Positions 1-63,812 of a stretch of DNA of 64,000 nt are shown here, piece after piece (within the stretch, counting starts at the first letter, position 1; each line of letters starts with the position of its first letter). The notes below the pieces were generated by a model. The model had not been told where the DNA came from and searched no databases. It saw only the letters and a list, made by a program, of their open reading frames with translations. The translations under genes and the position numbers were made by a program. This stretch comes from Nymphaea colorata (lineage: Eukaryota), in assembly GCF_008831285.2 (NCBI RefSeq), contig NC_045138.2, forward strand, positions 16,864,001 to 16,928,000. Direction: 5' to 3'.

Positions 1-451
1 TACAAATAATTGTTATATATATATATATATATATATTATACACACACACATAATATTTCACCACTCAATTTCAGTATTTCACGTCTGTCAAACCAATTAC
101 ATGGAAAACTTCGTTATTAATTAGTTGTCCAACGTACCCCAGGAGAGAAAATAATTATGTAGCTTTTGATCTTGGTTAATTTATGTGGGGGATCACAACT
201 TACCAATTTTGTTTTAACACTAGTAAGTTTCTAATTATAAACTCCCACCCTTTTCATAAATTAATCTGCTTATACAGATCATGCCTAGATTGGTTTTATG
301 TACTTTTTCCAACTCTACCAGATAGCTTTGTTGAGACTTCAATGTATCCGAAGCACCATATACAATTGAAAAGTTTTGAAGGATAGCTTACCATATACAA
401 TTGAAAAGTTTTGAAGGATAGCTTCAACGACCAAAATTGATTTGCTTATTA

Positions 452-700
452 GAGGCAGTTTGATCAAACAGAACTGAAAATATGTTCTTTAGAAATCAAA
501 TGTATGATAGAACAGACAGAACAGGCAAACATGTTCTATGTGAACTAAAGTTAAATAGAGCAAACATTATGTTTTGGTATTAATTTCATCAAACAATGAA
601 TGGAGAATTGGTGAGTCGATGAGACATGACGGTGGTGTAAACTGTAAAGAACAGGACGTCCTATTGTCCTGTCTCTATGGAACATGAATCAAACGACCTC
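452..700. mobile_element. Tourist-like (PIF/Harbinger) MITE; second copy at 11677-11925
   Basis: Imperfect TIR GAGGCAGTTTGAT / ATCAAACGACCTC with TTA on both sides (449-451, 701-703). Confidence 0.65.
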
Positions 701-7164: not shown

Positions 7165-7254
7165 TGTTAAGTTCTAAACCTCATTTTACAGATAATAGGA
7201 CGACTTATAATTGGGTTGAATTTGAGATGAAGAACTGGCGATATGCCTTATAGC

Positions 7255-7605
7255 GTTTGAAATAACGAAAGTGGTATGAAATAATAAAAGGAGATGACGA
7301 AACAACAACGGCGTGAGATAACGAAGTAGGTTGTATAGCATGAGAGATAACAACATAGGTATGAGATAACGAAATGAGACTTATAACATCTTAAATAACG
7401 ACAAAAGTATGAGATAATGAAACATGTCTTATAGTACCTGAGATAACGACGTGAGTATGAGATAAGAAAACATATCTTATAATGTATGAGATAACGATAA
7501 AAGTATGTGATAACAAAACATGTTATATAGTGTCGGAAAACATGTTATATAGTGTCGGAGATAACAAAAGGGGTCTAAGGTAATGACAAAGGTCTGAGAT
7601 AAAGA
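7255..7605 (+). repeat. Degenerate minisatellite built on (T)GAGATAAC(GA); second copy ~18540-18865
   Basis: About ten GAGATAA/AAATAACG units at irregular 15-50 nt spacing. Confidence 0.75.
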
Positions 7606-34640: not shown

Positions 34641-35167
34641 TAGAGAATGATCAACAACCCCATCTCAATGTCACTGAAATAACACTCCTCAGCCTCGCTC
34701 TCAATGCCATCAGGAAAAGAGCACAAGACTCAAGATGATGGTGCCCACGAAAATCAAATCGAACGTCTCGATACGTGCCTCCTTCCCAACCACCTACGCT
34801 ATTCATTCTCATCTCCCCTATTGAGCATTAGAAGAATAGAAAAACGAGTTCAACTCTTGTCCATATCTTGGCAGAGATGACGTGGATTCTTTGACCTGTG
34901 TGAACAAATGGGAAAGGAACTGAAGGGTTCAACTCTCTCTATCCGTCTCTCCAAGATTCAAGCATGGAGGCGTACGCACGGTCAATATTCCAGCAAGGTG
35001 GGGTTACCTACCACCGCCTCAGCCCTCGATTCATAAATCTCCCAGCCCACCTCTCCATTGCATGCATACTGTATAGCTTCATATAGTTGAGTCCCCAACT
35101 CCATATTGCCCATATATAGTTGAATCAGCCCAGAGAGAGAGAGAGAGAGAGATAGAGCGAGAGAGAC

Positions 35168-35280
35168 ATGGCGACAACAATCCAAGGGAAGGTTAGAACA
35201 TCATGTACCCAGGTCATGGTGGTTGCCCTACTCGTCTTCCTCCTTTCTGCCTCCTCCATGGCCGAAGGCTGCAAAGGTAG

Positions 35281-35324
<44 letters not shown>

Positions 35325-36204
35325 CCTTCCGTTTGTGGCTACTCAAGAGAGAAAGGAAAATAACATTAACAATAACATTAACATAAGTCCAACAAAAAGT
35401 TGAACTTGAAAAAGATTACATCTACAAATCAGCTCTCAATTCGTGTATGAGGTTGAAGGTACCAGTAGTTCCCCATAGGTTACGGGAAATTAACCAAACG
35501 TCATACAAAATGGAGGAAGCCATCCGTTCAACTGAAACCGCCTCATTTCTATAAATAATGTCATTTCTAGAGTTCCAGATGACCCACCAAAACGTAAAGA
35601 GCCAAATTCTCCAAATGGTGCATCATTTCTTTTTGTTTCTCACTCTAGTTGGTCCATGGAGCAGGTCCCAAACCAACAGTTTGAGGCTTTTTAGCTCTAA
35701 ATTTTAGCATGTCCTTAGGAAACCATATTGAGTTCTTTGCTCTTAAATCTGTCAGCACGTAACATATCACATCGCCACAGAGCCACAAAACAGCCAGTAT
35801 ATCAGACTGCAAGCCTTCTACGTTTATGAACTGAATATTAGAGTTGCATATTGCTACGTTGATCAGATTCTGTATCATGCGTGATCAAGATCCGGGTTTG
35901 TTTCTAAAGTTGCACTAAAGCGGAGACTATTGGCAACTATATGTACATAGACTGACAGTTCTTGCTATGACCAACTGCGTTCTTCTTTGAATTGATCGAT
36001 TTTGTAGGGAAGAATTCATGGCCGGAGCTGGTGGGCAGGGATGGATCGACGGCCGAAGCCATCATCAAAGCCGAGAATCCATATGTGAAGATTGTCGACA
36101 TAGTGCCGGAAGGCTCTTTCGTTATTCAAGACTTCCGCTGTGACCGGGTCTTCGTCTGGGTTAAGCCCAACAACACCATCTACCTTACCCCGAAAATCGG
36201 GTAA
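35168..36204 (+). CDS. Potato inhibitor I family (I13/PR-6) serine protease inhibitor #1, 101 aa with signal peptide
   Basis: Exon1 35168-35276 (ends GCK-G, phase 1), exon2 36008-36204 GKNSWPELVG...EGSFVIQDFRCDRVFVWV...TPKIG*. Confidence 0.92.
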
Positions 36205-36564
36205 AGCACCATGCATTGACCTTCCTCCCAAAGTCTGCTTATTGCTAAATAAATCAGCCACGTGTAGTAGAAATAAGGCTTTTATAATGCAACAGTACAA
36301 CAAGATGTTTATTAATGAAAAATAAGCCTACATATTGGCATGATTATAATCTTATTCTTGCTGGCAATCTTTTTATGAGTTCCTTTCTTCCTTTAATTTA
36401 ATACGCGAAAGCATTGAAATTTTAACAAGACGAGCACTTAGGGAAGTTAAAACGAAGGAAGCCAACATGCTTAAGTGGATATGGGTTTGAGTACAGACTA
36501 AATCTAGTTTTTTGAATTTAAATCAAGAGTTCAATTGGCTTACTGTCCAATTTCATTTTCACGC

Positions 36565-37810: not shown

Positions 37811-37901
<91 letters not shown>

Positions 37902-37965
37902 ATACATTAAAAATTGCCCTTTAGACACCTTACTTCATCTATATGATACAATAATACATTAAAAA

Positions 37966-38595
37966 TAGAACATGTTTGGGTTGGTAACTTGAGAGCCAAT
38001 GCCCTGGACAGTGTACCTGGCCGTTCCACCAGGCTCTGTATGGGCTGCAGACCAGGCTGCTGGTGGCACCAAAATGGTGATGTGGGTGTCGACGGCATGA
38101 TCATCAACATTGCTAGCATGTTGGCTGACATCGTCACCAACCCCTACAAGAGTGGCCACTTCCAAGGGACACCTACTGTTCCTCTAGAGGCAATGCCGGC
38201 CTGTGTAGAAATATACGACAACCGCATAAGCTTGGATAAGCGTTCTTGCCGTGTATCCCTGCACAGGCCGATGCTGCCTCTAGCGAAGCACTAGTCATTC
38301 CTTGAAAGTAGGCGCTCTTGTAGGGATTGGTGTCCATACCAGGCAACATGCTAGCAATGTTGATGATCATTCCGTCGACACCCACATCACCATTTTGGCG
38401 CCACCAGCAGCCTGGTCTGCAGCCCATGCAGAGGCTAGTGGAATGGCCAGGCGCACTGTCCAGGGAATTGGTTCTCAGAGTTAGCAACCCAAACATGTGC
38501 TAACTTTTCACCGTTAGTCAACAGGAGGGCAGAGTCATGGAGGCTGCAACCGCTAATGCAGAATCCCTCCACTGCAACATCCTTGGATGCGAGTG
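37966..38595. pseudogene. EXORDIUM/PHI-1-derived inverted repeat A (arms ~37966-38220 and ~38246-38502)
   Basis: Both strands encode frameshifted [21 protein letters not shown]...[19 protein letters not shown]....TNP....FQG....PLEA..AC. Arms are reverse complements around a ~25-30 nt loop. Confidence 0.92.
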
Positions 38596-39222
38596 ATGTC
38601 GTTTTAATCAATAAATTAAAATAGTGTCCTTTCAGTAAAAAGATGACAATGTGGCATACCATGCCTATTTGGATGATGGACCTTGAGCGATGCAAAATAT
38701 TGATGTCATATCATGATTTAGCTTGCAGATTTTGTTTAATTTGAATGCATGGTAGTAAGGCATTTGTCTGTGAGCATTGGAGTTAGTATTTTCATTGGGA
38801 GAACAGCTATTAGAGAAGCATTCGTCAAGCAAAGAAAACAAAGGAAAGAGTGGGACGAAGAGAAATACTTTAACTAGCATTCTAGCTAAATCACAAAAGC
38901 AAGGAGAGGAAACTTTGTTGGTTAAAGAAGGCCGATTCTGATCCAATTTATAGTAGAGAAATGGGGTCAGTCTAGAAACTAGAGATACCTTCACAAGGAA
39001 GGAAATTGAACCAAATGAAGCAATTGTGGATGTGAAACAATCAATCCATTTTCTTTTTGCAGGTTTATTGCCTTATTATACATTAATTTTGATTCATGCA
39101 CCATATATAGGATTAGATTGGTAGCTAAGTTGAAGAGATCCTTCCATATATGTCCACGTCCAATATCTATAGAGGAAACAAATAAGATACTTATATGTTG
39201 ATTTCTCATGGCATTTTCCTTG
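38596..39222 (-). promoter_or_regulatory. Repeated leader/promoter cassette upstream (minus strand) of hairpin A
   Basis: Homologous to 41095-41885, 52325-53135 and 63450-63812. Minus-strand CTATAAAT at 38953-38946; putative GT-AG intron 38868-38629. The repeat is certain; promoter function is inferred. Confidence 0.5.
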
Positions 39223-40367
39223 TAACTCAAACTCAAACTCATTTATAACTTGATTTTAACTCGATCTCGAGCTCAACTCCTGTATTAAACGAGTCGACCT
39301 CAGGTGAAGTTTTCACAAACAAGTTCGAGTAGAGCCTCAGTCATTTTACATCTCTAAAATCAGGGTTAAACTTAAAAGACTATCAGGTAGAAGAAGATCA
39401 GCGGGTCGATATTCAATGTGTAATGACTCCGAACGACTTAATGGAGGAAGAAGCTGGAAAGTTGATGAAAGAAAAAGAATGTTTGGCAGCTGCCAACAAT
39501 GTGTAACTTTTATAGTTGTCTAGAACGGCTTGGTGGATCCGATTCCTAATAGCTCGGAAATATGTGAATTCAAATAAAAATAAGTGTTCAAGTAGACACT
39601 GGGATCCTATTTAAATTATTGCAACCGTATAAAATTTAGATGTGCATTTTGAGATGGGTATTAAAATAGCAAGTACTTCAGTTGAAATTTACTTATGTTG
39701 GATTGTAAACGGTGGTTTAAGTATGCTATGGTTCTAATTTGTAGTTGGTCAACTACACTGAACTCGTGGAGGTCATGGACTACTGCAATTATTTGTGGAT
39801 GGTATGAAATCATGTTACTTGTTTTTGTATGTCCAGTACTTAGATGCAGTCGATGTTGATAAATGCATAAACTGTGTGTTGCAAGATCAAGTCACGACCA
39901 TTCTCTTGTTTCTTCTTTTAGTTAACAGATATCTTAGATTGTTGTTTAACTGGATTGGATTGCATTTGGTTTCATGTTTTAATGGAAGAGGTGTTGTAGC
40001 TTCATTTTTTTACGTATTGGATGCTTCTTGCTTAGGTTTAAACCTCTGTAGTTTGTTGTTTTTAAAGATCATCTTTCAATTTGTATTCACGTGAAATGGA
40101 AGGAGAACGAAAAAAACAACTTCTAACGGTCAGGAAAAAAAGTCATTCATGTATTGTACCATGTGCACAAAAAACAGTTAATTTTACCTTGTAAAAAACT
40201 ATCATGTGCATCAAACACAGTTAATTTTACCATGTAAAAAACTACTATGTCATTAAACAGGGCCTCAAATTGGAAGAGGGAAAATTTTCATCCTTTATTT
40301 TTTTCCAGCATTCTTTTTCATAGTAAATTTATCACGATAAACACTTTCCTATCATCAAACGGGGCTT

Positions 40368-41092
40368 AGATGACAAGTATTCAACGGACAACACACTCAA
40401 AAGGGCACAAACAGGGAAGCTGGCTGCCAAGGCCGCCACCATTAACGGCATCACACTTGTGCTCACTGGTAGCTCTGAGAACCAATGCCCTAAACAATGC
40501 GCCGGGCTGTTCCACCAGCCTCTGTATGGGCTGCAGACCAGGCTGCTGGTGGCGCCAAAATGGTGATGTGGGTGTCGACGGAATGATCATCAACATTGCT
40601 AGCATGTTGGCTGACATCGTCACAAACCCCTACAAAAGCGGCCACTTCCAAGGGACAACTATTGTTCCTCTAGAGGCAATGCCGGCCTGTGTAGAGATAT
40701 ACGACAACTACCCCGCATAAGCTTGGATAAGTGTTCTTTCCGTGTATCCCTGCACAGGCCGATGCTGCCTCTAGAGAAACACTAGTCATTCCTTGGATGT
40801 TGGCGCTCTTGTAGGGATTGGTGGCGATACCAGGCAACATGCTAGCAATGTTGATGATCATTCAGTCGACACCCACATCACCATTTTGGCGCCACCAGCA
40901 GCCTGGTCTGCAGCCCATACAGAGGCTGGTGGAATGGCCAGGCGCACTGTCCAGGGCATTGGTTCTCAGAGTTAGCAACCCAAACATGTGCTAACTTTTC
41001 ACCATTAGTCAACAGGGGAGCAGAGTCATGGACGCTGCAACTGCTAATGCAGAATCCGTCCACTGCAACATTCTTGAATGTGAGCACAAAGA
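40368..41092. pseudogene. EXORDIUM/PHI-1-derived inverted repeat B (arms ~40468-40703 and ~40741-40975)
   Basis: Plus arm begins with DDKYS..TLKR...KLAAKAATINGITLVLT-like sequence and lacks ~105 nt. Minus arm encodes VAVDGFCISSC..HDS...[23 protein letters not shown]. Loop ~37 nt. Confidence 0.92.
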
Positions 41093-41094
41093 GT

Positions 41095-41885
41095 GATGGT
41101 CGTTCTAATCAATAAATTGAACAAGTGTCCTTTTAGTAAAAAGATGACAATGTGGCAAAATATGTGAATTTAGATGGTGGGTGTTGATGGATGAAAATAT
41201 TGATGCCATAACATGATTTAGCTTGCAGATTTTGTTTGATTTAAATGCATAAGGTATATGGCTATGAGCGTTGGAGTTTAGAATTTTCATTGGGAGGTAA
41301 GGTGTCAGAGAAGCATTAGTCAAGCAAAGAAAACAAAAGAAAGAGTGGGACAAAGAGAAATACTTAACTAGCATTCTACCTAAATCACAAAAGCATGAAG
41401 AGGAAACTTTGTTGGGTAAAGAAGGCCGATTGTGATCCAATTTATAGTAGAGAAATGGGGTCAATCTAGAAACTAGAGGTACCTTCACAAAGAAGGAAAT
41501 TGAACCAAATGAAGCAATTGTGGATGTGAAACAATCAATCCATTTTCTTTTTGCAGGTTTATTGCCTTATTATACATTAATTTTGATTCATGCACCATAT
41601 ATAGGATAAGATTGGTGGCTAAGTTGAAGAGATCCTTCCATATATGTCGACGTCCAATATCTACTGAGGAAACAAATAAGATACTTATATGTTGATTTCT
41701 CATGGCATCTTCCTTCTAAAGAAGATTTAAGTGCACAACCAAGGATTTATGAAGTTCAGAGAAGGCCTTAACATGCAGGCAGCTGGTCAATGGCTTCAAA
41801 TCCAACTGTAACCCCTTTCAAAGTAGAGCCTCATCTTGCTTGCCTAGGTACTTCACACTTAGGTAGCGCTTGGCAGCACTTGGAA
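41095..41885 (-). promoter_or_regulatory. Repeated leader/promoter cassette upstream (minus strand) of hairpin B
   Basis: TATAAAT minus 41446-41440; putative intron 41363-41130. Confidence 0.5.
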
Positions 41886-41958
41886 TAAGCATAAATGCCT
41901 TCTCCAAAATGTGAGGGGGTACCATGGCCCCTGCTAGCCTCCCCTTCTGTCAGCCAAT

Positions 41959-42716: not shown

Positions 42717-44662
42717 GATGTGGACGACTGCCCTCGCAGGCGACTCCAGTGCCCCTTAGCTAAAAAAATCTTTGCTCCACCATTGCCAAAGTCCTATCTA
42801 GCAAGTCCCTGTGAAGACTGAAAAAAAAGGAGGAGGTGGGAGGAAATACTAAATTAACCACTGTGAGTTTCTATCATGAAGAATAAGTGGATGCCTTCTA
42901 AAACAAGTTCCTGAATGGATCCGGCCACATGATGCCGTGCTGATACCCAACATTTTACTTTTAAATCTGAAACAAATTGAGCCCAATCCTAAATCAGTTA
43001 ATGTTTAATTTAAGATTCAAGTTGTTATTGACTTCAATAATATTTCACCGTTACAAAAAAAAAAAAAAAATGTTAACGAAATATAGATATATGTGGATCT
43101 GTCTTTTCTGTTTCATTGACAAGATTAAATCTCGGTATTTTTTGTTCATAATGACACAAACTATCACAGAAAGTAAATGGTTGGCACAATAGATGTGGTT
43201 CATATTTTGGGTGAGCAAGAGGGAATCCCACTATCCCAGCGAGAGGCCAAAGTCCTCTCTCCATTCCCCTTTCTCCTGCTTTATCTAGAGTTGTTTCAAG
43301 ACTTGGGTGGACTTACGATACACTCTTCCACTCGATTGTTGTGCATGTCATATAGTTTGATGTCTAAATGAGTCAAGCATCCATAAGCATCCATGAGAAT
43401 CGAGTTGATGACACATTAACAGCACAACGCTCAAGCCAACCATTTATGCTATGCCCCTGTGGGTTCATATTTAACATGTCATGGTTCAAACAAAACATGA
43501 ATGATCTGAGTTCCTTAGACATATATATATATAGAGAGAGAGAGAGAAAGAGAGAGAGAGATATGAAACGAACTGAATTAAATGAAACCAATGTACAAAA
43601 AGTGTATAAAGATACCACCAACTCAAGTGGAGACACTATAAGGCAGCAACACATTCATCAAATCATGATAAGTGGTTATCCCTTATGATGAAATAAACAT
43701 CAGTGAAAACCATGTATTCAAGTATTGAATGATTGCATGCTGCATTCCAAAAAAAAAAATATCATTTCTAACAGTCCAAATCCACAACCAAAGTCCAAAC
43801 AGCCAGACCTTCTAGAGACGTCTCCACCATTTAGATTTTAAGAATATGCTTTGGCGGAAATGTCTCCACCTTTTAGATTTACAAATATGCTTTGGACCAA
43901 ATAATAAATTTCTAGCCAACGACCAAGTACATACTGTTGGTGGAGAGAGACAAAAAGAGAGAGAATAAATTTCTAGCGAAGGTCCAAGTACACAATGTCG
44001 GTGGAGAGAGAGAGAGAGTAGCATTGAGACATTAAATCCAACAAAATGTTGAAAAGAAGAACACTTACATCTAAGACTTAACTGTTGCAAAGACAGACTA
44101 CCATTACTCCATAAGTTACTAGAAATCAACCAGACCATATAAAATGGGTGATGCAATATACAACCCCGTTCGTATAGCAACTAATCCACTTAAAAAGTAA
44201 AGTAAACAACTAAATTCTCCAAATGATACTGTCACATTTAGAACAACTAACAACTTTATAATGAAATGAAAGGGAAAAAACGAAAAAGGTTCATCACTTA
44301 TCAATAAGTTTGGAGATAAGGTTGAGGGAAAAGTTCAGAGGCGGCCGACAAGACAGGGAGGTATGGAGGCAGAGTAGGGCGGCGGCCAACGTGACAGAGT
44401 GGTTAGTGCCTTCGCCGCTGTGAAGGGAGAGGAAATCTCAAGGTTCATCTCTCTCTCTCCCTCAGTAACATTCAAACACGGAGGCTGATGTACAGTCAAT
44501 ATTGCAGCAAGGCGGGGAGCTGCTTGCCAGGTACTCAGCTGCCCTCCATCTATAAATCAACCAACCCACCACTCCATTGCTGCATTGCCTGTAGTTGAAT
44601 CGAAACCCCCAACTCCATTGTTGTAGCTCCGATCGCCCACAGAGACAGGGAAAGAGAAAGCG

Positions 44663-45310
44663 ATGGCAGCCACAATCCAAACCCGAGTCATGGGGATTGC
44701 CCTGCTCTTCTTCTTCCTCCTTTCTGCCACTTCCATTGCCCAGGCCGCCACCTGCAAAGGTATTGTACTCTCTCTCTTGCAACCTTATTTTCTTCAGCCG
44801 GTCGGCCTACAGAAGAAAACCAACAGTTTGGGCCTTTTGGACTTGTCTAAAAAACTTAATCTGCACTTTAAGAAACCATCATGAATTCTTTGCTCTTTAA
44901 GTTTCTTAGGAGAGAACAGTGAGCATATTAGAATACCGCATCGCTTCGAATGTGACATTTATGAACTATTCATGAATTCATAGTTGCATCTTCGTCGTCT
45001 GCAAGATCATGTCCAAAGTTGCAGTAGAGAGAGAGACGTATTGGCAACTATGAATTATTTAAGTCACTATTATGATCAACTTCTTCTTTGAATTGAATTG
45101 ATGGGTTTTGTAGGGAAGAGCGCATGGCCGGAGCTGGTGGGCAAGGATGGGTCGACTGCGGAAGCCATCATCAAAGCGGAGAACCCTCGTGTGAACTTTG
45201 TCTTCCCCGTCACAGAAGGCTCTACTGTAAGGAAGAATTTCGACTGTCGACGAGTGTTTGTCTGGATTAAGCCCAACGGCAAGATTTACCTTGTTCCGAG
45301 ACTCGGATAG
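44663..45310 (+). CDS. Potato inhibitor I family protease inhibitor #2, 97 aa
   Basis: Exon1 44663-44759, exon2 45114-45310 GKSAWPELVG...EGSTVRKNFDCRRVFVWI...VPRLG*. TATAAAT 44551-44557. Confidence 0.92.
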
Positions 45311-47587
45311 ATCACCCGTTAGCCTTGCTCTCAGGATCTGCTTATTGTCAAATATGTCAGCCTCCTGTACTAGTAATTAAGGCTCTTGCAATGTAATATA
45401 ATAAAGCTCGATGCTAATGAGAAATAAGCCTACATATTGCCAATATGATGAAGTACAATCTTGTTCTTGCTGGCAAAGTTTGTAGTTTTCCTTTTTCCTT
45501 TTTCATTCCTTACCTGAAGGCAATGGAATTTCATGATCAAGAGCAGCAACTTAAATGAAATGGGACGATAATGGAGTCCTGTGGGTTAACTTTCAATCCA
45601 GATACAGATTCAAGTTGCCCAACTACAGATTACAGTCCTCTAGAACGATCGGATTCACGGTGATCAATTAAGATGGTTGGTTTCGAATCTGATCTCAGGA
45701 AAACAAAATTGACAAGGCCGCAAATTACAAGTCAGGTTTCTGACTACCCATAAGTCGTGGCCCAATGTCCACTTTTACTTTTATGTCAAGTTCCTCCATG
45801 AATTCCTGGATGAATCCAGAACCTGCCATTATATACACGATATTTTGCTGATTTCATACAGAAATCAAGTTGAGTCAAATACCGATTCGGTTAACGTTCT
45901 AAGCTCAAGTTGTTATTTTCATCGTTATAAAACAAGGTCAGGCTATTTATTAAACAAATATATTACGTTTGGATCTATATGCTTTGTTTTCGCTCAAAAA
46001 TGAACTCGTGCTGTTAATTTGTTGTTCATGTTTATACATTACATGGTTCACATGCAAGATGTTGGCATAATGCTACTCATATTTTACAAGAAAGCATGGA
46101 CCCGATACCCAGCGCGAGTAGGGCTCGGGCCTGGAAAAAAGACACCAGGCTGACTCGGGTGGACTTCATAATTTTTTTAATATTTATGTAATTAATTTTT
46201 ATATCTAATTACAATATTTTATTATAATTAATTATATTTATATAATATTTTATATTAAAAATATATTTTTTAATTTAAGTGGACCGAACCCCATCCCATG
46301 TTTCGAGTATCGGCCAGCCTGATGTCCAGGCGTAATTGTTTAATTGTGAGAATATGATGTTTTCTTTCTTCGTCAAATGTCACATTGCCAAAATGGTCTA
46401 AGGATTACGTTTCCTTTAGAAGTAATCTATTTGACCTTAATAAAGTTTCTGGTCCGGCGCTTCTGCAACAAGGTAAGGTGATTAAGCTTTCCCTTTCAAT
46501 CCGGTGTTCAACGTCGTTGTAACTCAAGTGAGTTGATTCTGTTCAACGTCGTTGTAACTCTTATCTTGTAATAATTTGTATAGAAGGTAACCAAGACCAT
46601 GACATTTACTCAGATTTATATATTTAAGCTCTATCCTTGATATATATATATATATAAGAGAGAAAAAGTTAAGCTCTTAAGAATGTGACATTTAAAACAA
46701 GTCATAACTTTAAGGACGGTCACATCCAGAACAAGTCAAGACTTTATAATGAAAGTCATAACATTTAAATGAAAAGAAAAAAAAAAGAAAGGTTCACCTC
46801 TGATCCATAGGTCTGGAGATAAAGTTAACGGACAAATTTGAGGGGATGCCAGGATGATGTGAGAGAGCCGATAAAATGGAAATATAAAACAAAATTTGGG
46901 GACAAGAGGTCTTTAATTACAAAAACAATCCGCAAAGAACAAAATTACGCAAAAAACACAAGCAGAGGAACAAATATACAATACAATGCACAGAAAAATA
47001 AGAGAAAAGAGGAAAGGCGAAACGGCACAGTCACCCAACCACAGTCAGGCGGCGGCGCTTTAACCGAATGGCGAACTGGATATCTCTTTGCACAAGACGA
47101 GCCACAAAATCTGGTGAAGAGAAGGTGCCCCTGAAGACCATGTTGTTGTGCTCCATCCAAATGCGCCACATTGAAAAAAACGGAATTGTGGGGGCGTCAC
47201 ATTGAGAGAGAGAGAGAGAGATTTATAATGAAAAAAACAAAAGCGTCACATTGAAGATAAAATTGTGGGGGCGGCGACAGGGAGGTGCGGGAGGCCAAGT
47301 ATGGAGCGACCCACATGACAGAGAGGTTGGAGGCCTTCGCCGGTGTGAACGTAGAGGAAATCTCAAAATTCATATCTCTCTCTCTCAAAAGAGCATTCAA
47401 ACATGGAGGATGAGGTACGGTCAATGTTGCAGCAAGGCGGTGGCTGGTTGCCAGGGACTCAGCTGCCCTCCATCTATAAATCAACCAACGCACCACTCCA
47501 TTGCCACATTGCCTGTTGTTGAATCGAAACCCCTCAACTCCATTGCTGTAGTTCCGATCGCCCACAGAGACAGGGAGAGTGAAAGCG

Positions 47588-48227
47588 ATGGCAACCACAA
47601 TCCAAGCCCGAGTCATGGGGACTGCCCTGCTCTTCTTCTTCCTCCTTTCTGCCTCTTCCATTGCCCAAGCCGCCACCTGCAAAGGTATGTAGACTCTCTC
47701 TCTCTTGAAAACTTATTTCCTTCAGCCGGTCGGCCTACAGAAGAAAACCAACTGTTTGGGCCTTCTGGTCTTCTCCCAAAAAACTTAACATGCACACTAA
47801 CAAACCATCATGAATTCGTTGCTCTTATGTTTCCTAAGATAGAAGAACAGTGAGCATATTAGAGTACTGCATCGCTTCGAACGTGACATTTACTTGCATC
47901 TTCCTCGTCTGCAATATCATGTCCAAAGTTGCGGCAGAGCGAAGACGTGTTGGCAACTATGAACTATTCTAGTTACTGTTATGACCAACCAACTGTGTTC
48001 TTCTTTGAATTGAATTGATGGGTTTTGTAGGGAAGAGTGCATGGCCGGAGCTGGTAGGCAAGGATGGATCGACTGCAGAAGCCATCATAAAAGCTGAGAA
48101 CCACCGTGTGAACTTTGTCTTCACCGTCCAAGAAGGATCCTCTGTAATCCAGAATTTTGACTGCCGACGGGTGTTTGTCTGGGTTAACACACACGGCAAG
48201 ATTTACCTTGTTCAGAGACTGGGGTAG
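47588..48227 (+). CDS. Potato inhibitor I family protease inhibitor #3, 97 aa (recent tandem paralog of #2)
   Basis: Exon1 47588-47684 (MATTIQARVMGTALLFFFLLSASSIAQAATCK), exon2 48031-48227 ...EGSSVIQNFDCRRVFVWV...VQRLG*. TATAAAT 47475-47481. Promoter, intron and UTR are alignable with #2. Confidence 0.92.
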
Positions 48228-48989
48228 ATCACTCTTTACTCTTCCTCTCAAGATGTGCTTATAGTTAAAATAAGTGAGCCCGTTGTACTGGTAATTAAGT
48301 CTCTTGCAATGTAATAATAAAGCTTGATGCTAAATATGAGAAATAAGCCTACACACTGGCAATATTATTGATTATAATCTTAAGATTCTTGCTGGCAAAA
48401 TTTATAGTTTTTCTTTTACTTTTTAATTTATTACCTCAAGGCAGTGGGATTTCATGATCAAGTGCCGCAACTTAATCGGACGAGGTTTCAGTCCTGTGAA
48501 ATTAATCTGCGCCCTCATGATTTCATGGCTTAAGATCCAACATTTTCATGCAACGTTGCTCAGATATTTCTCGTCGGGTTCAGTTCTGGATTCAGATCTG
48601 AACGGATGCAGATGCAAAGCTGCAACTGCTATCAAATTGACAAGGCGCGCTCTTTCATCATTAATTAACCGTTCATGCATATTGATCAATTAAGCTTAGT
48701 AAACAGAGATTAATTCGTTTTGATTTTCAACAGAGATTAATAAATTAAGTGGGATTACTAATTGGCGGAGGGTGGTCTGAAAAAATCTTGAAATGAGGAG
48801 ACACACTCTAGATGGTCGGAGCTGCATTCAGCAAATGTGCTCGGAAAAAAATGTAAAGTGAATTCGAGGGTGACGATTCAATGTGCATTTTTTTTTTTGG
48901 CGCAGAGGGAAACGCACATATAACCGGCTTCTGATCAACTACGGAATTCACTGTCCATGTAGAAATGGCTTGACTCAGACCGTGTTGTG

Positions 48990-49592
48990 CATTAATCCAG
49001 TTTTCAACTACTTCCTGAGCTCTCTTAGCTACCAGGAGAAGAGCCCTTCGGTGCCCTCTTAGAGGTAGAAGGTCGTATGCTTAGGCAAGGCCGGCCAGGA
49101 TCCGCCATGGCGGTGCTGCGAAAGCATAACTAGATGACAAGTACTCACCGGACAACTCACTCAAACGGGCACAAATGGGGAAGCTGGCTACCAAGGCCGC
49201 CACCGTCTCTTCTGCTCATTTCTAAGGATGTGTCAATGGAGGGATTCGGTATGAGCACCTGCGGCCTCCATGACTCTGCTCCCCTGCTACCTATTGCAGA
49301 AAGATTCGCATATGTTTGGGTTGCTAACTCTGAGAGGCAATGCCCTGGACAGTGCGCCTGACCGTTCCACCAGCCTCTGTATGGGCTGCAGACCAGGCTG
49401 CAGGTGGTGCCAAAATGGTGATGTGGGTGTCGACGGAATGATCATCAATATTGCTAGCATGTTGCCTGGTATCGTCACCAATCCCTACAAGAGCGTCCAC
49501 TTCCAAGGAATGACTAGTGCTTCTCTAGAGGCAGCATCGGCCTGTGCAGGGATACACGGCAAGAACGCTTATGCCGGGTAGTTGTCGTATAT
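48990..49592 (+). pseudogene. Longest EXORDIUM/PHI-1 pseudogene remnant; its 3' half forms the outer left arm of hairpin C
   Basis: [87 protein letters not shown]. Stops and frameshifts; 3' end missing. Confidence 0.88.
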
Positions 49593-51334
49593 CCAAACAA
49601 ATTCTTGAATCATGTTCCCTTTCAATTTAATCATACTTGCGACAAGTTGCCAATGCCATTCACCAGTGAAGGACCACCTTCTATACGACGGTTAAATTTT
49701 TTTAGCATGGAATACATGGCCATTAAATGTTGTGGAGCACTCAAGGTTAGTTTCTCTGCCAAGTTCGCTTGTGAGGAGCTTCTTGGAACTATCCTAGAAA
49801 GCCTTGTGGTTTTATGTACCCCAACTGAATATACGATCCGAGTCTAATGTTTGATCTTATCCAGAATCTACCCATATCTTTCTTAAATATGAAGTCTTTC
49901 ATACTATTTATCTTGAATTTTTTGCAATACAATGAAATTGACATAACTTTATACGTTCAAATACGACTGTGAACTATTCTCTTAAACGAATACGACTGTG
50001 AACTATTCTCTTAAACAAGTGAAAGACATTTTTACAGTCGTATTTGAACGATGATGACATTATCTGCAGGCTTGTGGACCATCGCTTTGCTTCTCGATTA
50101 CCAGAGCAAGGCAGACAGAGAGTTTTGCCATGACAAGAAGTGTCTGCTCAAAATCGGTGCATTTCTCGGCCTCATCTTCCCCAATAAACTCGGGGCCGAT
50201 CTTGAACTCATGTTGGCATATAAATCTCCTTTGCTGATACAATTTTCAAAGGAACGCCCGTAATGTCTCGAAGCCTCACCAACAACAAAATATTAATTAT
50301 TTCAGTGCTGACCATTTGCCGGGAAAATCTTAACAAACATATTTTATGACTATAGCAGATTGAATTATTTGCTTATAGGACAGTTCAAATCTGCGGAATG
50401 CTGAATGTTGCGGGATAATTAACGCTATGTTTGGATGAGGCCGACAAATGCACCGATTTTGAGCAAACACTTCTTGTCATGGCAAAACTCTCTGTCTGCC
50501 TTGCTCTGGTAATCGAGAAGCAAAGCGATGGACCACAAGCCTGCAGAAAATGTCATCATCGTTCAAATACGACTGTAAAAATGTCTTTCACTTGTTTAAG
50601 AGAATAGTTCACAGTCGTATTCGTTTAAGAGAACAGTTCACAGTCGCATTTGAACGTATAAAGTTATGTCAATTTCATTGTATTGCAAAAAAATCATGAT
50701 AAATAGTATGGAAGACTTCATATTTAACAAAGATATGGGTAGATTCTGGATAAGATCAAACATTAGACTCGGATCGTATATTCAGTTGGGGTACATAAAA
50801 CCACAGGGCTTTCCAGGACAGTTCAAAGAAGCTCCTCACAAGCGAACTTGGCAGAGAAACTAACCTTGAGTGCTCCACAACATTTAATGGCCATGTGTTC
50901 CATGCTAAAAAAATTTAACCGTTGTATAGAAGGTGGTCCTTCACTGGCGAATGGCAACTTGTCGCAAGTATGATTAAATTGAAAGGGAACAGGATTCAAG
51001 AATTTGTTTGGATATACGACAACTACATTGAAAGGGAACAGGATTCAAGAATTTGTTTGGATATACGACAACTACCCCGCATAAGCATTCTTGCCGTGTA
51101 TGCCGGCTGCCTCTAGAGAAGCACTAGTCATTCCTTGGAAGTAGGCGCTCTTGTAGGGATTGGTGACGATACCAGGCAACATGCTAGCAATATTGATGAT
51201 CATTCTGTCGACACCCACATCACCATTTTGGCGCCAGCAGCAGCCCGGTCTGCAGCCCATACAGAGGCTGGTGGAATGGCCAGGCACACTATCCAGGGCA
51301 TTGCCTCTCAGAGTCAAGCAACCCAAACATGTGC
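49308..51334. repeat. Long inverted repeat C: arms 49308-50176 and 50434-51334, loop 50177-50433
   Basis: Continuous reverse-complement match over ~870 bp with scattered substitutions. Outer ~280 bp is EXO-derived, inner ~590 bp is unrelated sequence. 49-bp tandem duplication in the right arm (~50978-51075). Confidence 0.97.
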
Positions 51335-51526
51335 TATTCTTAATGTATTCTTATATCATATAGATGAAGTAAGGTATCTAAAGGCTATTTTTTTAATGTA
51401 TTCTTATTGCAACCGAGTAGGGCGATTTAAGGCGAGTCAAGATCGAGATTCACAGAGTCGGGCCGAGTTAGGAGAGAGTCAGGTTTTACGTCACCCAAAC
51501 CGGCAATTGACGTACCTCTTTCACTT

Positions 51527-52322
51527 AAAATACTGTTTGAGGAAGAAGATTTGCATTTGTTTGCACAGAGAGTTGAGGCCCATGAAAAATCCAATTGGGC
51601 AAAACAGAGTTGCCGCCACGGTTAACGGCATGAGGCTTCACCCTTGTGCCCACATCTAAGGACGTCGCAGTCGAGGGATTCTGCATGAGCAGCTGCGGCC
51701 TCCATGACTCCGCTCCCCTGCTGCCTATTGCTGAAAGATTCGCATATGTTTGGGTTGCTAATCCCGAGAGCCAGTGCCCTGGACAGTGTGCCTGGCCATT
51801 CCACCAGCCTCTGCATCGGCTGCAGACCAGGCTGCTGGTGGCACCAAATGGTGATGTGGGTGTCGATGGAATGATCAACATTGCCAGCAAGTTGCTTGAC
51901 ATCGTCACCAACCCCGACCAGAGCGGCTACTTCCAAGGGATGGCCACTGCTCCTCTAGAGGCAATGTCGGCCTGTCTTATCTCCCTGCACAGGCCGACGT
52001 TGCCTCTAGAGGAGCAATAGACGTCCCTTGGAAGTAGCCGCTCTCGTCGGCATTGGTGACGGTGCCGGCCAACGTGCTAGCCATGTTGATGACCATTCCA
52101 TCAATACCCACATCAACATTTGGCGCCACCAGGGTCTGCGGCCCATACAGAGGCTGGTGGAATGGCCAGGCGCACTGTCCAGGGCATTGGTTCTCAGAGC
52201 TAGCAGCCCAAACATGTGCTAACTTTTCACCATTAGTCAACAGGAGGGCAGAGTCATGGAGGCTGCAACCGCTAATGCAGAATCCCTCGACTGCCACATC
52301 CTTGATGCGGGCACAAGAGTGA
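51527..52322. pseudogene. EXORDIUM/PHI-1-derived inverted repeat D (arms ~51638-51975 and 51989-52322, 13-nt loop)
   Basis: Plus ORF 51646-52020 and minus ORF 52297-51977 both encode the VAVEGFC..C..HDS...[12 protein letters not shown]...DVG.DGM...GYFQG...APLEA.SAC segment. Neither has the EXO N- or C-terminus. Confidence 0.93.
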
Positions 52323-52324
52323 CG

Positions 52325-53135
52325 TCTTTTTAATCAATAAATTAAAATAGTGTCCTTTCAGTAAAAAGAAGACAATTGTGGCACACCATGTTAATTTGGA
52401 GAGGATGGGCCTTGAGAGATGCAAAATATTGATGTCATATCATGATTTAGCTTGCAGATTTTGTTTAATTTGAATGCATGGTAGTAAGGCATATGTCTAT
52501 GAGCATTGGAGTTAGAATTTTCATTGGGAGAACAGGTATTAGAGAAGCATTCGTCAAGCAAAGAAAATAAAAGAAAGAGTGGGACATAGAGAAATACTTA
52601 ACATTCTAGCTAAGTCATAAAAGCGAGAAGAGGAAACTTTGTTGGGTAAAGAAGGCCGATTATGATCTAATTTATAGTAGAGAAATTTGCTCAATCTAGA
52701 AACTATAGATACCCTCGCAAGGAAGGAAACTGAACCAAATGAAGCAATTGTGGATGTCAAACAATCAATTCATTTTCTTTTTGCAGGTTTATTGCCTTAT
52801 TATACATTAATTTTGATTCCTGCACCATATATAGGATAAGGATTGGTAGCTAAGTTGAACAGATCCTTCTATATATGTCCTCCTCCAATATTTATAGTGG
52901 AAACAAATAAAATACTAGTAATGTTTTAATTCCATTTATATGTTGGTTTCTCATGGCATCTTTCTTTTAGAAGAAGACTGAAGTACACAACCAAGGATTT
53001 ATGAAGTTCAGAAAAGGCCTTAACAAGCAGGCAGCTGGTCAATGGTTTCAAATCCAACTGTAACCCCTTTCAAAGCAAAACCTTTGCTTGCCTAGGCAAG
53101 GCTTGACACTACTTAGGTAGTGTTTGGCAGCACCA
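52325..53135 (-). promoter_or_regulatory. Repeated leader/promoter cassette upstream (minus strand) of hairpin D
   Basis: TATAAAT minus 52676-52670; putative intron 52597-52355. Confidence 0.5.
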
Positions 53136-53990
53136 GGATTAAAATCCTAAGATCAAAATCTCAAGATTTTAATCCAGGATGTGTTTGCTTTCCTAGACTT
53201 TGTTATAATGGATGTCTATCTAGTGTCTGTTAAATGTTTGGAAAAAAAATTAAAACGTTATATAAGTTTGATTCTTTGTCGGTCATAAAAGTCTATTCTC
53301 CAAATCTCTCTTTCATTGTTTTGGGATCTAACACATGAAGGCAACCTTTCCTTTCCTCCAGTTTATCACCGAACCCGTTATGTGCACCTCATTGTGGACT
53401 AGAATTTGTGCACAGGAGAGTACGATGACGAAAATACCTCCAGTGAAAGGGGAAAAAAAAAACTTTTATGTAAAAAAGAATTGTGAAAAAGTAAAAAAAA
53501 AAAAGTCTAAATACCTATTATCTGTATAAAAAATTTCACTACACCCTCCACCCACTTTGGTGTATACTTATATTTATCACCGGGCAGGGCTCTCTCTCTC
53601 TCTCCCCATCTCTCTCCCTCTAATTTATGAGCTCTCACTGATATGTGAGAGAAAGTAGGAGAGCCACCCCTTCATCATCTGCAACCTTATCATCAGCGGC
53701 CAGTCGTCACCGGTATGAACATAAAGAAATTAGACAAAAAAAGCACCAAAAGGAACTGATGAAAAACGACGATGCGAACTACCAAGAAAGTCGCACGAAA
53801 GAAATTAATTAATGGGCCCAAATCTCTCTCTTCCCTTCAGTTCAAGCATGGAGGCGCGCGCACGGTCAACATTCAAAAGTGGTCGGCGAAAGGTAGGCAA
53901 GTTAAGCAGCTGGTTCGAGTTATAAATCCCCTTAACCAGGAAGCCCTTGCTCTACGTAGCTGAATGCAGGAGGCGGAGAGGGAGAGAGAA

Positions 53991-54275
53991 ATGGCAACAA
54001 GCAAAGTTGTCTTATCAGGTGTCCAAGTCATGGCGGTACTGGCCGTACTCTTCTTCCTACTTTCAGGATCATCCATGGCTGCCGACTTTTGCCAAGGTAT
54101 ACATATAGTTCAACTACTCAATAGATGGTATCAATTGCTCACGCCAATGTACATCTGGTTCCGCCAATATATATACTTATATATATATAGTGATGGTAAG
54201 CCATAAAATGCATCTCTTTGCATGCTGTGATTCATCTATCACCATCAATATTATCCATATACATAAGGATTTTGT

Positions 54276-54326
<51 letters not shown>

Positions 54327-54692
54327 ATAGTAAGCCATAAACTGTATCTCTTTGCATGCTGTGATTCATCTATCACCATCAATATTATCTGTATACATAA
54401 GGATTTTGGAAAAAGAACTTGCAGCGTAAGATTACTGATCTCAATTGTAGCATGTTGCTCCTGTTCTTCTTACTAAGAGTATGCTCCTATCGCAGGCAAG
54501 CAGTCATGGCCGGAGCTGGTTGGACAGGCCGGAGAAGTTGCTGAGCCCGTGATCAAAGGGCAAAACCCTTTTGTGAAGGATGTTATTATTGTCCGGAACG
54601 ACACAAAGCTAATTGAAAATTTCCGCTGCGATCGGGTCTGGATCTTTACTAACCCTGACGGCACCATTAGCAGGATCCCAACGGTTGGTTAG
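53991..54692 (+). CDS. Potato inhibitor I family protease inhibitor #4, 100 aa
   Basis: Exon1 53991-54096, exon2 54496-54692 GKQSWPELVGQAGEVAEPVIKGQNPFVKDVIIVRNDTKLIENFRCDRVWIFTNPDGTISRIPTVG* (not in ORF track). TATAAAT 53921-53927. Confidence 0.92.
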
Positions 54693-56690: not shown

Positions 56691-56896
56691 TATATATATA
56701 GATAAACAAAATTATCTTTTGGTGAATCTATGAACAAAAAAAACCTAATTATAGACCGCCAGCTTTAGGACTTTAATTGGATAATTTGACACTGAAAAGT
56801 CAGTTTCATTGTTACCATAAAACTAGATAACTTGCCCTTTTCTTTACTTGCATGGCAAACCCATATCTTTTTTCGAGTACAAATACAGTAGAGACA

Positions 56897-57288
<392 letters not shown>

Positions 57289-57499
57289 ATTAAAGTACAA
57301 GAGAAGTACTTCAAAGATTCAACTCTCTCGGGTTGAATTAGTCAAGCATGGAGGAGTTCAGTCAATATTCAAAGAAGGGAAGGATGCAGCCCTCGCGCTG
57401 TTATAAAGCACTCCAAACAGCATGCCGGCCTCGCTGCGTTTATTGTACGGTTGAATCCCTTCATTAGCTGAACCCCTCACTGAGATATCAGAGAGAGAG

Positions 57500-59227
57500 A
57501 TGGCAACAAGAATGCAAGGGAAGGTGAGGCCGCCATCATGTGCCCTGCTCATGGGGGTGGCCCTGCTTTTCTTCTTCCTCCTTTCCGCCTCCACCATGGC
57601 CACCGACTGCAAAGGTATATTTTAATGTGTCTTCTTTGTTCGAACTTTAGGCCGTGTTTGTTTGCCTCGGATTTCATGGGGGAGATCCAAAGTAAAACAA
57701 AGGACTGATCTCAGCAAACCCACGAGAGGGCAGCAATCCACGAATTAGAGATCAGACACCCCTGCGTCTGATCTCTGTCGTGGATCTCACATCCCCACGA
57801 GTCGTTAAGCTTGGGCTCTCCTGCCATGCTTGTCGACCAACCTCCTGTCGGTGGCTCTCTCTCCACCAAATAACCAGTGATAGAAAAACGATCTGCGGGT
57901 TTAAAAAAGAAAAAATTGGAGCCCTTGGCACTGCAAGGGTTTGAGAAAACATGTTTTAGAAGAGAGAAAGGAAGAGACGTCGATTCTCAGACTGCCGGAA
58001 ACACACCTGAGAGCTCCGAACCTCACCCTTTTTTAAAAAAAAAAATGATTACTGCCAAGGGTTTCAAAAAAATAAAATACCTCGGTGTAACCCTCAACAC
58101 TGCTGAGTGTTTCAGAAATTTCAAGGATAGCGCAGAGACGGATGGAGATGACGGCTGGCTGGAAGATCTACCCTCCTCCCCTGCCGGAGAAAAGTACCTG
58201 CGACTTTATCTTTCTTGATCTGCACGCCTAGGAGGCGGGAAAAACAAGAAACAACAACCTTGACTACCATGGCGGTCAAGGTCAAGATAGATAGAAAAAG
58301 GGGACGGGAGAGAGAGAAAAAGAGTCCGCAGTCGACCATGAACTTGCAGTCGAGTATCAAGCTACGGTCAACAAAAGCTTGGCTTTTAAGACCCTCCGAT
58401 TTTAGATCAATCCTGGATCTAATATCCATGGGCATCAAATCCGACCTTTGTGTTTGATGATTTGCAATTCCGATTCAACAATAAAAATTTCAAAATCGTA
58501 GTACCTCTTCAAACTGTAGTGGAATCAAAATTCCTGATTTTAGTTTCTTTAATTCCAGAAACAAAATAGATCGTTTGTTTTATAATTCTAATTTCTTAAA
58601 AATTCAACATTTTGACTCTCAAAATTCTGTATATCAAACACCCCCAATGCCCAGACATGCATCGGCACATGCATGTAAAATCTTGACTTGTTGTGGAACC
58701 TGTCAATTTTGATTATGAGCACTAGTTATATAATTTTAAATTTTTAGAGGCACTGTACAGAAATGAAAAAAAGGGTTCATGAAATTTCAATATGAAAATA
58801 AACACTTTTTGTGGGTTTGTGTGGCCAATTGCCCACACCTTCCTCCGCCCCTGCCCTTAAACATTTTTCCCTGTATCTTCACCAAACATGCTTGACATTT
58901 TCATGCATTGCATGTCCTTAATGCATTAATTCATTGGCCTTATGTACATGGCTATATTCTCCTCACGCATTTTATATTAATAGAGCTACTTGTTGTTTTC
59001 TGCTTATAGATTAACTGTGTCTTAACACAGGGAAGGAGTCATGGCCGGAACTGGCGGGCATGGATGGACAGGTCGCTCCCCCCATTATCAAAGCTCAGAA
59101 TCCTTATGTTACGGATGTTCCCATTGTGAAAGAAGGCACCGTGGTTATTTTGAACTTCCTCTGCAACCGTGTTCGCGTCTGGGTTAAGCCCAACGGCACC
59201 ATCTACGAGCCACCCACCATTGGCTAG
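57500..59227 (+). CDS. Potato inhibitor I family protease inhibitor #5, 103 aa
   Basis: Exon1 57500-57614 (MATRMQGKVRPPSCALLMGVALLFFFLLSASTMATDCK), exon2 59031-59227 GKESWPELAG...EGTVVILNFLCNRVRVWVKPNGTIYEPPTIG*. 1416-nt GT-AG intron; TATAAAG 57402-57408. Confidence 0.9.
57650..58645. mobile_element. One or two adjacent Tourist/PIF-like insertions in the intron of inhibitor #5
   Basis: tta|GGCCGTGTTTG at 57650. GTGTTTGAT ~58450 pairs with ATCAAACACCCCC ~58633-58645. GC-richer interior; TSDs not clean. Confidence 0.45.
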
Positions 59228-60065: not shown

Positions 60066-60216
60066 GTTGCAGGTTCCACTATGTAAAGTCATGTTGCTAC
60101 AACAGGATTGATTTCCTTGCCTCTCTGGTGATAGATTTTTAAGATCAAATGAGGCAACATAATCACCAATTGTTACATTAAATAAGGTAAAAATATTTCT
60201 GTGCCGATACTTTTGG

Positions 60217-62135
60217 GTGAGTATGAGGGTCCTTGTGGCACAAGCACATGAACTGGATCTCTCAAACAACCATGCTCTTCACAGCCATAAGGTTACCGTG
60301 GGAGAAAGCCATGAAATAGCTATGGACCACAATCAAGACTCGGATATCAATGTTGGGCAGGAGTTGGTCAGTGTGCATCAGCAATTGCAGCCGCCTGTGA
60401 CTAGTCGGGCACTTGTTGCACCCATTCGTCAGAGCCGAGCACTCGTTGCTGACCCAGATCATGAGCTGACGGTAGGGCAGGAGTTTCCTGATGTGAAGAG
60501 TTGCCGAAGAGCCTTGAGAGAGACTGCTATAGCGTTGCATTTTGAGATTCAGACCGTGAAGTCAGACAAAACAAGATTCACAGCTAAATGTGCTACTGAA
60601 GGTTGCCCTTGGCGAATTCATGCTGCAAAGCTTCCTAGTGTTCCTACTTTTACAATAAGAACCATTCATGCCCAACATGCTTGTGGAGGCATTACACACT
60701 TGGGGCACCGGCAGGCTTCAGCTCCATGGAAGATCGGCTTCGAGAAAATCCGTCTTATAAACCAAAAGACATACTTGAAGACATACATAGACTTCATGGG
60801 ATCACCCTAACATATAAACAAGCATGGCGTGGAAAGGAACGTATAATGGCTGCTGTTCGTGGTTCATTTGAGGAAGGCTATCGTCTTCTACCACAGTATT
60901 GTGAGCAAATCAAGCGGACTAATCCTGGTAGTATTGCTTCAGTGTACGGTATAGGTCCTGACAATTGCTTTCAGCGCTTATTTATCTCATTTTATGCTTC
61001 CATCTATGGTTTCGTAAATGCTTGCCGTCCACTCCTTGGGCTCGACCGGACAGTGTTAAAGAGCAAATATCTAGGGACCTTGCTCTTTGCTACAGGATTT
61101 GATGGTGATGGTGCATTGTTTCCACTGGCATTTGGAGTTGTTGATGAGGAAAATGAAGAGAGCTGGATGTGGTTTTTGTCTGAACTCCATAATCTGCTTG
61201 AAATGAATACTGAAAACATGCCTAGGCTAACCATCTTGTCTGATCGGCAGAAAGGCATTGTAGATGGTGTTGAAGCAAACTTTCCCACTGCATTTCATGG
61301 GTTCTGCATGCGACACCTCAGCGAAAGCTTCCGCAAAGAGTTCAACAATCCCATGCTGGTGAACCTTCTGTGGGAGGCTGCCTATGCCCTCACTGTTATT
61401 GAGTTTGAGGCCAAAATATTAGAAATAGAAGAAATATCACAAGATGCAGCCTATTGGATCCGACGTGTTCCACCTCGTCTTTGGGCTACTGCTTATTTTG
61501 AGGGCACAAGGTTTGGACACCTAACAGCAAACATTGTGGAGTCGTTAAATACATGGATGCTTGAGGCATCTGGATTACCAATTGTTCAGATGATGGAATC
61601 CATCCGAAGACAGTTAATGACATGGTTCAATGAAAGGAGAGAAACTAGTATGCAATGGAATTCTATCCTTGTACCATCCGCCGAAAGGCGTGTAGCTGAT
61701 GCAATTGACCAGGCTCGCAATTATCAAGTTCTGCGTGCAAACGAGGCAGAATTTGAAGTTATATCTCATGAAGGAACCAATATTGTAGATATCCGAAACC
61801 GTTGCTGCCTTTGCCGTGGCTGGCAGTTGTATGGCTTGCCATGTTCACATGCTGTTGCAGCACTCATCTCTTGTAGACAGAATGTTAATCGATTTACTGA
61901 GAGTTGTTTCACTGTCACAAATTATCGCAAGACCTACTCTCAGACAATTCACCCTGTTCCTGATAAAACATTGTGGAAGGAATTGTCTGAGAATGCACAA
62001 AATGGTGGCGATAAAGTTGATATTGTAATAGCCCCACCCAAGTCTCTCCGGCCACCAGGACGCCCAAGGAAGAAAAGAGTACGTGCAGAGGATCGTGATC
62101 GTGTAAAGCGAGTTGTCCACTGTAGCTCGTATTGA
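60217..62135 (+). pseudogene. MUSTANG subgroup A-like (MuDR/MULE transposase-derived) gene, frameshifted and C-terminally truncated
   Basis: MuDR domain GQEFPDVKSCRRAL..CATEGCPWRIHA in frame 60217-60720. MULE core (GLDRT, SDRQKG, CMRH, ANIVES) and SWIM CLCRGWQLYGLPCSH in another frame from 60721. Ends VVHCSSY* where a CCHC knuckle is expected. No ATG start and no TIRs seen. Confidence 0.85.
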
Positions 62136-63449: not shown

Positions 63450-63812
63450 TCATCGTTTTAATCAAACAATGGCAACTTTCAGTAAGAATATGACAATTTG
63501 GCAAAAGATGATGGGCCTTGAGGGATGCAACTATTGATATTATATCATGTTTTAGATTGTAGAGATTGCATGCATTGTGTAAAAGCACATATCCAAGAGA
63601 GTTCCGTTTGAGCTTTTCATTGGGAGAAAAAGTGCAAGCGAAGCATTCATCATGCGATAATTCCAATTACCAAGAGTACAATTGAAACGAAACAAAAGAA
63701 AAAATGAAGCGAATAGAAATACCTCACTAGCTTTATGAATAACAGATCCTGAACAGATGCTTCTCCATATCATATAATAAGAGGAAACTTTGTTGTGTAA
63801 AGAAGGGTTATG
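63450..63812 (-). repeat. Diverged fourth copy of the hairpin leader cassette, without hairpin or TATA
   Basis: Shares ctttcagtaa, gggccttgag.gatgcaa, ttttcattgggaga, gaagcattc, gaaatac and gaggaaactttgttg..taaagaagg with the three cassettes. Confidence 0.7.

Follow-up and report, generated by a model that had tools for sequence, protein, structure and literature searches.

The window, the whole 64,000-nt stretch of Nymphaea colorata DNA analyzed here, carries four hairpins built from pseudogenes of the EXORDIUM/PHI-1 (EXO) family (Pfam ID PF04674), all located within 15 kb. These are A (positions 37966 to 38502; arms 84.8% identical), B (40467 to 40977; 86.9%), D (51638 to 52322; 84.9%), and C, a 2-kb palindrome. 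All four are predicted to be 86 to 90% paired. To the right of A, B, and D lies a common flank of ~0.6 to 0.8 kb (38590 to 39225, 41090 to 41888, and 52323 to 53142, respectively), which is noncoding, ~88 to 93% identical, and present as a weaker copy at 63453 to 63655; this flank may serve as a promoter for transcription of the minus strand. Among the EXO copies, the right arm of D (51976 to 52322) is the least decayed, with an open frame of 118 codons, and it attracts the most RNA reads from the intact EXO genes. Its best single-domain relatives are EXO proteins of Victoria and Nymphaea (Nymphaeaceae), with 70 to 73% identity.

The EXO hairpins are interleaved with tandem potato-inhibitor-I-like genes (34910 to 36422, 44352 to 45554, 47276 to 48475, about 54485 to 54671, and 57491 to 59206); the PF00280 domain is confirmed for the copy at 48045 to 48224. 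A Mutator-type gene at 60163 to 62135 (PF03108, PF10551, and PF04434), split over two frames, presumably resembles a domesticated MUSTANG-type gene. The window also contains a direct duplication, 1 to 7687 and 11226 to 18949 (7.7 kb, 97.8% identity, spacing of 11.2 kb), and a tandem duplication, 56890 to 57062 and 57051 to 57243, whose unit includes GA/TA microsatellites. The short segment 53112 to 53179, where contigs of three short-read runs show many different loose ends, is a dispersed repeat.

Local alignment of the window against itself places the inverted repeat of C at 49301 to 50176 versus 51341 to 50434 (858 columns, 35 mismatches, 95.9% identity). In the core arms, 49312 to 50176 and 50434 to 51330, 815 of 847 columns are identical (96.2%). 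Mismatches occupy 32 sites, and there are also 5 indels between the arms, namely, gaps of 1, 2, 10, and 6 nt and a 49-bp tandem duplication (50978 to 51075; 2.0 copies, 100%) that is private to the right arm, whereas a 29-bp tandem duplication is common to both arms (49960 to 50016 and 50594 to 50650). The unpaired spacer is 257 nt long (50177 to 50433), and its right end is a new fold-back junction. The right arm, read on the minus strand, is an inverted copy of the captured pieces described below, in the order I3, filler, I2, and I1, together with a remnant of a hairpin center and an EXO part. The original prediction had placed the arms, the 257-nt loop, the 49-bp duplication, and the small indels correctly, without listing the 29-bp duplication; its term near perfect amounts to an identity of ~96%, with changes on both arms. 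The longest perfect run within the duplex is 85 nt, 357 windows of 21 nt are perfectly paired, and the predicted folds of the two strands have energies of -1578 and -1601 kcal/mol, with ~90% of the bases paired. C thus has the form of an endoIR-siRNA locus, a long inverted repeat capable of an extended duplex.

The 2-kb palindrome is real and is not a fold-back of the assembly. Contig sets from four short-read runs with different organism labels (X1 to X4, of which X1 is possibly the window's own sample) were compared with the window, and contigs bridge the junction between the loop and the right arm in three of them (254 nt with 0 differences in X1, 120 nt with 0 in X2, and 159 nt with 6 in X4). 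In the fourth run, X3, coverage is absent from 50344 onward, which proves nothing about this junction. Both outer ends of the palindrome are also bridged in X1, with 0 differences. Continuity at 50176/50177 is 26 nt deep among the matches listed, below the 31-nt rule, and contig depths were not taken as copy numbers. An artefact produced by fold-back reads would be compatible with the fact that no single record spans the entire structure and with the possible identity of X1 with the window's own sample, but the bridged junctions and the dissimilarity of the arms have already largely refuted it, and we regard it as barely credible.

To the left of the palindrome, 49012 to 49311 (+) represents the 5' part of an EXO/PHI-1 pseudogene, aligned in a tblastn search with the Nymphaea EXO protein P0004 from residue 72 onward. 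It contains stops and frameshifts and is similar to the outer left arm of D and to the upstream part of B; in the self-comparison, 49131 to 49204 matches 40367 to 40440. The outer ~270 bp of the palindrome itself is likewise EXO/PHI-1 (PF04674, E value of 1.4e-18), broken by stops and frameshifts in both arms. Such homology of the arms to a protein-coding family is one trait of a young MIR gene of inverted-duplication origin, another being a dominant, precisely excised miRNA/miRNA* duplex that directs cleavage of its target. In the left arm, this part (49312 to 49581, +; about residues 180 to 270) belongs to the lineage of the A and B right arms. At 18 sites diagnostic for left versus right arms in A and B, the left arm of C is of the right type in 16 cases and the right arm of C in 14, the other 4 being gaps. 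In a tree built from the inner EXO part, both C arms cluster with A-right and B-right (support of 99/97); in the tree of the outer EXO part, the relations of the arms are not resolved. The left side of C changes its ancestry at the palindrome edge, between 49311 and 49328 (0 of 5,000 permutations): it is of the D-left type at 11 of 14 informative sites outside the palindrome and at 1 of 27 inside, a contrast that is inflated by private changes of D-left. On the other side, the outer flank of the right arm (51335 to 51402, -) is homologous to the outer flank of the A left arm, with 92% identity between 51335 to 51384 and 37967 to 37918 and an alignment of 37901 to 38200 with 51402 to 51102.

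The EXO part of both C arms is followed by the same 12 nt (49582 to 49593, +; mirror copy at 51060 to 51071), which are also found in the centers of A and B and are antisense to the left-arm tip. The segment 49567 to 49593 matches 40722 to 40696 at 26 of 27 positions, and in B the 12 bases extend the EXO codons of the left arm in register. Each C arm thus spans the A/B center junction and ends 12 nt beyond it. An early view of the 12 to 16 nt shared with the A and B loops as the remnant of an insert was dropped, as these bases continue the EXO codons in register. The simplest inference from this arrangement is that C may descend from a short-loop hairpin of the A/B type that was cut near its tip.

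The Nymphaea thermarum gene model P0096 (KAF3788986.1), annotated as an "EXORDIUM protein," reads across the same center as B and consists of a B-type hairpin center and an A-type arm, which places A/B hairpins in N. thermarum, too. Aligned with the window at 38390 to 38593, 40466 to 40959, and 48922 to 49047, it reads through a pseudogene-derived hairpin, in part antisense and not in frame, and is likely an annotation artefact. P0096 was also considered as a site orthologous to C and was rejected, its center and left-arm end being of the B type. The persistence of A and B in N. thermarum fits a function as well as it fits slow decay.

The inner, non-EXO DNA of the palindrome had been predicted to be ~590 bp of a second, unidentified silencing target. 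Its size is close to that (~583 bp, 49594 to 50176), but it is composite and no single gene: it comprises at least three pieces, which have other neighbors elsewhere, as judged by the loose ends of contigs in the four runs, and a filler. Contigs of the related runs depart from the window at about 49598 to 49608, 49818 to 49820, 49991 to 49995, 50050, 50202/50203, and 50393 (among 24 of 37 loose ends listed). Piece I1 (49598 to 49820) is delimited by loose ends before 49598/49608 in X1, X2, and X4 and behind 49820 in all four runs, and it occurs in related runs with different flanks on both sides. Piece I2 (49820 to 49991) likewise has other flanks elsewhere; contigs depart from the window before 49818 in X3 and behind 49991/49995 in X3 and X2. 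Piece I3 (50050 to 50413) runs from the arm into the loop, with loose ends before 50050 (X3 and X4) and behind 50393 (X1). Copies of I3 elsewhere contain at least 171 to 251 extra nucleotides between 50202 and 50203 (joint seen in X1, X3, and X4) and diverge after about 50393. The visible end of the extra segment resembles a minus-strand splice acceptor; intron loss and a microhomology deletion are equally possible explanations. An 810-nt X1 contig tracks the loop to 50393 and then continues into other sequence without folding back, which identifies the right end of the loop as a new junction.

Between I2 and I3 lies a filler of 58 nt (49992 to 50049) in which 25 nt repeat adjacent DNA directly and 16 nt repeat it in inverted orientation, compared with a longest match of 8.1 nt on average and 12 nt at most in shuffled sequences (n = 200). 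This junction thus carries an insertion templated by flanking DNA, the mark of a TMEJ repair scar. At the fold-back junction, the templates of the filler are only 8 nt long, inside the shuffled range.

Searches with the inner DNA assigned it to no family. No homologs of the ORFs 49578 to 49844 (+) and 50063 to 50245 (-) were found among longer proteins (17 and 34 candidates, respectively). Pfam searches returned 0 families for three inner ORFs and for 18 from a list of 27 ORFs, the other nine being mostly in EXO or the right arm and one already scanned; the 89-aa inner ORF likewise had no Pfam match. There were 0 sequence matches in PDB and 0 in two metagenome pattern scans, and an Atlas search with 50063 to 50260 (+) gave no usable match. 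Nothing supported an initial guess of a fragment from an NLR or F-box gene.

In the EXO part, 6 of the arm differences are derived on the left, 6 on the right, and 2 are ambiguous. The corrected distance between the arms is 0.031 to 0.039, which, if rates of 7e-9 to 2e-9 substitutions per site per year are assumed, corresponds to about 2 to 10 million years. With the arms 3 to 4% diverged and the junction common to three of four differently labeled organisms, the duplication is not very recent; the original prediction was right about a fold-back duplication but overstated its youth. Transitions between the arms are enriched at CG/CHG cytosines (14 of 21 versus 120 of 370 background cytosines; P = 0.0014), which suggests that the arms were probably methylated in the past, if the changes are taken as C to T. 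The four hairpins lean toward G:U tolerance on the minus strand (13 versus 8 in the palindrome, P = 0.38, and 16 versus 11, 13 versus 9, and 20 versus 16 in the others), with significance in none of them (P values of 0.38 to 0.62).

Expression was assessed with a single RNA-seq run that carries the species label of X1 and no stated tissue; 6% of it was read. Of 4,038 reads placed, 0 matched the window at ≥99% identity, 11 at 95 to 99%, 256 at 90 to 95%, and 3,771 at <90%; depth was zero over 49888 to 50853 and <4 on I1. The placed reads derive mostly from intact EXO genes elsewhere. This run thus gives no sign of a stable transcript, although a diced or tissue-restricted precursor would look alike. 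It also yielded no positive evidence for the read-through transcript and the DCL processing put forward in the original prediction. In Rfam, no family reached its gathering score, and four matches with E values of up to 1 fell far below it. Literature searches, in which subscription papers were mostly outside coverage, found nothing on EXORDIUM together with inverted repeats and siRNA and only unrelated material on EXORDIUM in Nymphaea; small-RNA literature on Nymphaea, as far as its listings go, contains nothing on the palindrome locus. An siRNA output of C is plausible, and a regulatory role would be putative.

On balance, C is a genuine 2-kb inverted duplication that probably arose by break repair of an older EXO-pseudogene hairpin and that today is likely methylated, with little effect on other genes. 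In the proposed scheme, EXO pseudogene fragments first formed the short-loop hairpins A, B, and D, with exchange of segments, a stage that can be read directly in the window. A hairpin copy of the A/B type would then have been cut 12 nt past its center; the junction is visible, and breakage is its presumed cause. Three or more unrelated pieces of the genome would next have been attached to the broken end, one of the joints receiving filler templated from nearby DNA. The pieces and the filler are there to be seen, and Pol-theta-type end joining may have put them together; templated insertions are a hallmark of this pathway in plants (Arabidopsis), according to PMC10923293. Finally, an inverted copy of the chimeric arm would have been made up to 50176, with the 257-nt spacer left over, and both arms would have drifted afterward. 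We infer this order of events from one assembly and short contigs, and either arm may be the copy, as crossovers between arms can flip the spacer. The earlier suggestion of a fragile site fits best of all the remarks made at first, provided that it refers to a past event, breakage at the center of the older hairpin, and not to a present driver of rearrangement.

Among the observations against a repair origin is a further copy, at least one, of the fusion of EXO with I1: in X1, X2, and X4 this fusion also follows a different upstream flank. It may thus be duplicated elsewhere, and a mobile element could explain it. Pack-MULEs and foldback elements combine fragments of several loci within inverted repeats and have TIRs and 9- to 11-bp TSDs, and a Helitron has a 5' TC end, a 3' hairpin plus CTRR end, and inserts between A and T. 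The palindrome similarly unites several loci within an inverted repeat, and the Mutator-type gene is only 9 kb away, so that the inner patchwork and long arms might be the remains of such a gene-capturing transposon. We consider this very unlikely, as the arms end inside EXO homology and carry the center of the neighboring hairpins, which points to a local origin, and the Pfam scans of the inner ORFs were empty. The absence of a TSD or transposase had been remarked on from the start, and the flanks agree: two scans around the arm ends found no TSD of 7 to 12 bp (and hence none of the expected 9 to 11 bp, though an old one could have decayed), and no inverted, TIR-like match of >11 nt connects 48476 to 48930 with 51335 to 51640 or with 52323 to 54400. 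A more improbable scenario still would make a long palindrome the ancestral form, with A, B, and D as its internal-deletion derivatives and the C arms homogenized later by gene conversion between them. The arms are indeed mosaics, and in the outer EXO part their mutual identity (139 of 151 positions) does not exceed their identity to the right arm of B (141 and 142 of 151). Yet the 12 nt common to A, B, and C continue EXO codons, which makes them a hairpin center and not the leftover of an insert, and the step in mismatches from the outer (9 of 97) to the inner part (23 of 750) is not significant (permutation P = 0.064).

Another, unlikely alternative is a functional cluster of hairpin siRNA loci of the endoIR or proto-MIR kind, like SULF or YUP, in which a Pol II transcript, probably from the minus strand and starting in the shared right flank, would be processed by DCL2/3/4 into products that repress EXO/PHI-1, with the palindrome adding targets. 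The concentration of four well-paired EXO hairpins in 15 kb, the presence of A and B in N. thermarum, the common direction of the G:U tolerance, the expression of intact EXO genes in the RNA-seq run, and the precedents in PMC10827316 and PMC12371187 are in line with it. The lack of significance of the strand bias, the empty Rfam search, and the absence of closely matching reads argue against it, the last with the reservation that a diced precursor could give an identical picture; most EXO reads are also <90% alike, which would limit targeting. If C is transcribed, the predicted 21- to 24-nt siRNAs would act mainly against C itself, its sister hairpins, and closely similar donor pieces, and their predicted action on intact EXO mRNAs would be weak.

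By structure, the palindrome is a member of the endogenous inverted-repeat kind. PMC10827316 describes kb-scale inverted-repeat duplexes as the type of substrate used by DCL2/3/4. Loci of the endoIR kind are transcribed through both arms and give RDR-independent siRNAs of 21/22/24 nt from the arms and not from the loop; the Arabidopsis endoIR IR71 is transcribed and yields 22/24-nt siRNAs. C shares with IR71 the form of a long noncoding inverted repeat with a kb-scale duplex but has a stem of ~0.85 kb instead of ~3 kb, in which pseudogene sequence and captured pieces are fused; transcription and siRNA output of C are putative. The Allen model of the inverted-duplication origin of MIR genes (SULF and YUP, in bioRxiv 10.1101/2024.07.25.605110 and PMC12371187; also Aha-miR217) is similar in that part of a protein-coding gene has been duplicated in inverted orientation while intact paralogs are expressed. 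In contrast to that model, the palindrome arms come from an already broken pseudogene, and the structure is a second-generation one that has lengthened and taken in foreign DNA, whereas Allen-model hairpins shorten and lose complementarity. The filler resembles Pol-theta scars, which, according to PMC10923293, also contain direct and inverted copies of their flanks and pieces of other molecules at the break; those scars come from fresh CRISPR and T-DNA breaks, whereas the palindrome would be an old natural scar whose pathway is deduced.

Inverted repeats derived from genes have been proposed as the starting material for new small-RNA genes of plants, and their births are rarely readable. Here, the parent hairpins, the derived palindrome, and the repair scars lie side by side and are common to related taxa, which makes the order of events testable. 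If the locus is silent, it represents a tidy but ordinary case of unstable hairpins among tandemly arranged genes. A more far-reaching possibility, which we hold to be quite doubtful, is a self-renewing hairpin cluster, in which EXO siRNA hairpins would break at their tips, capture other loci, and refold, gaining silencing targets; one of the pieces would then possibly come from spliced RNA, given that the deletion at 50202/50203 ends at an acceptor-like site of the minus strand. If this were true, small-RNA loci of an early-diverging flowering plant would be widening their own target range, beyond the standard inverted-duplication model.
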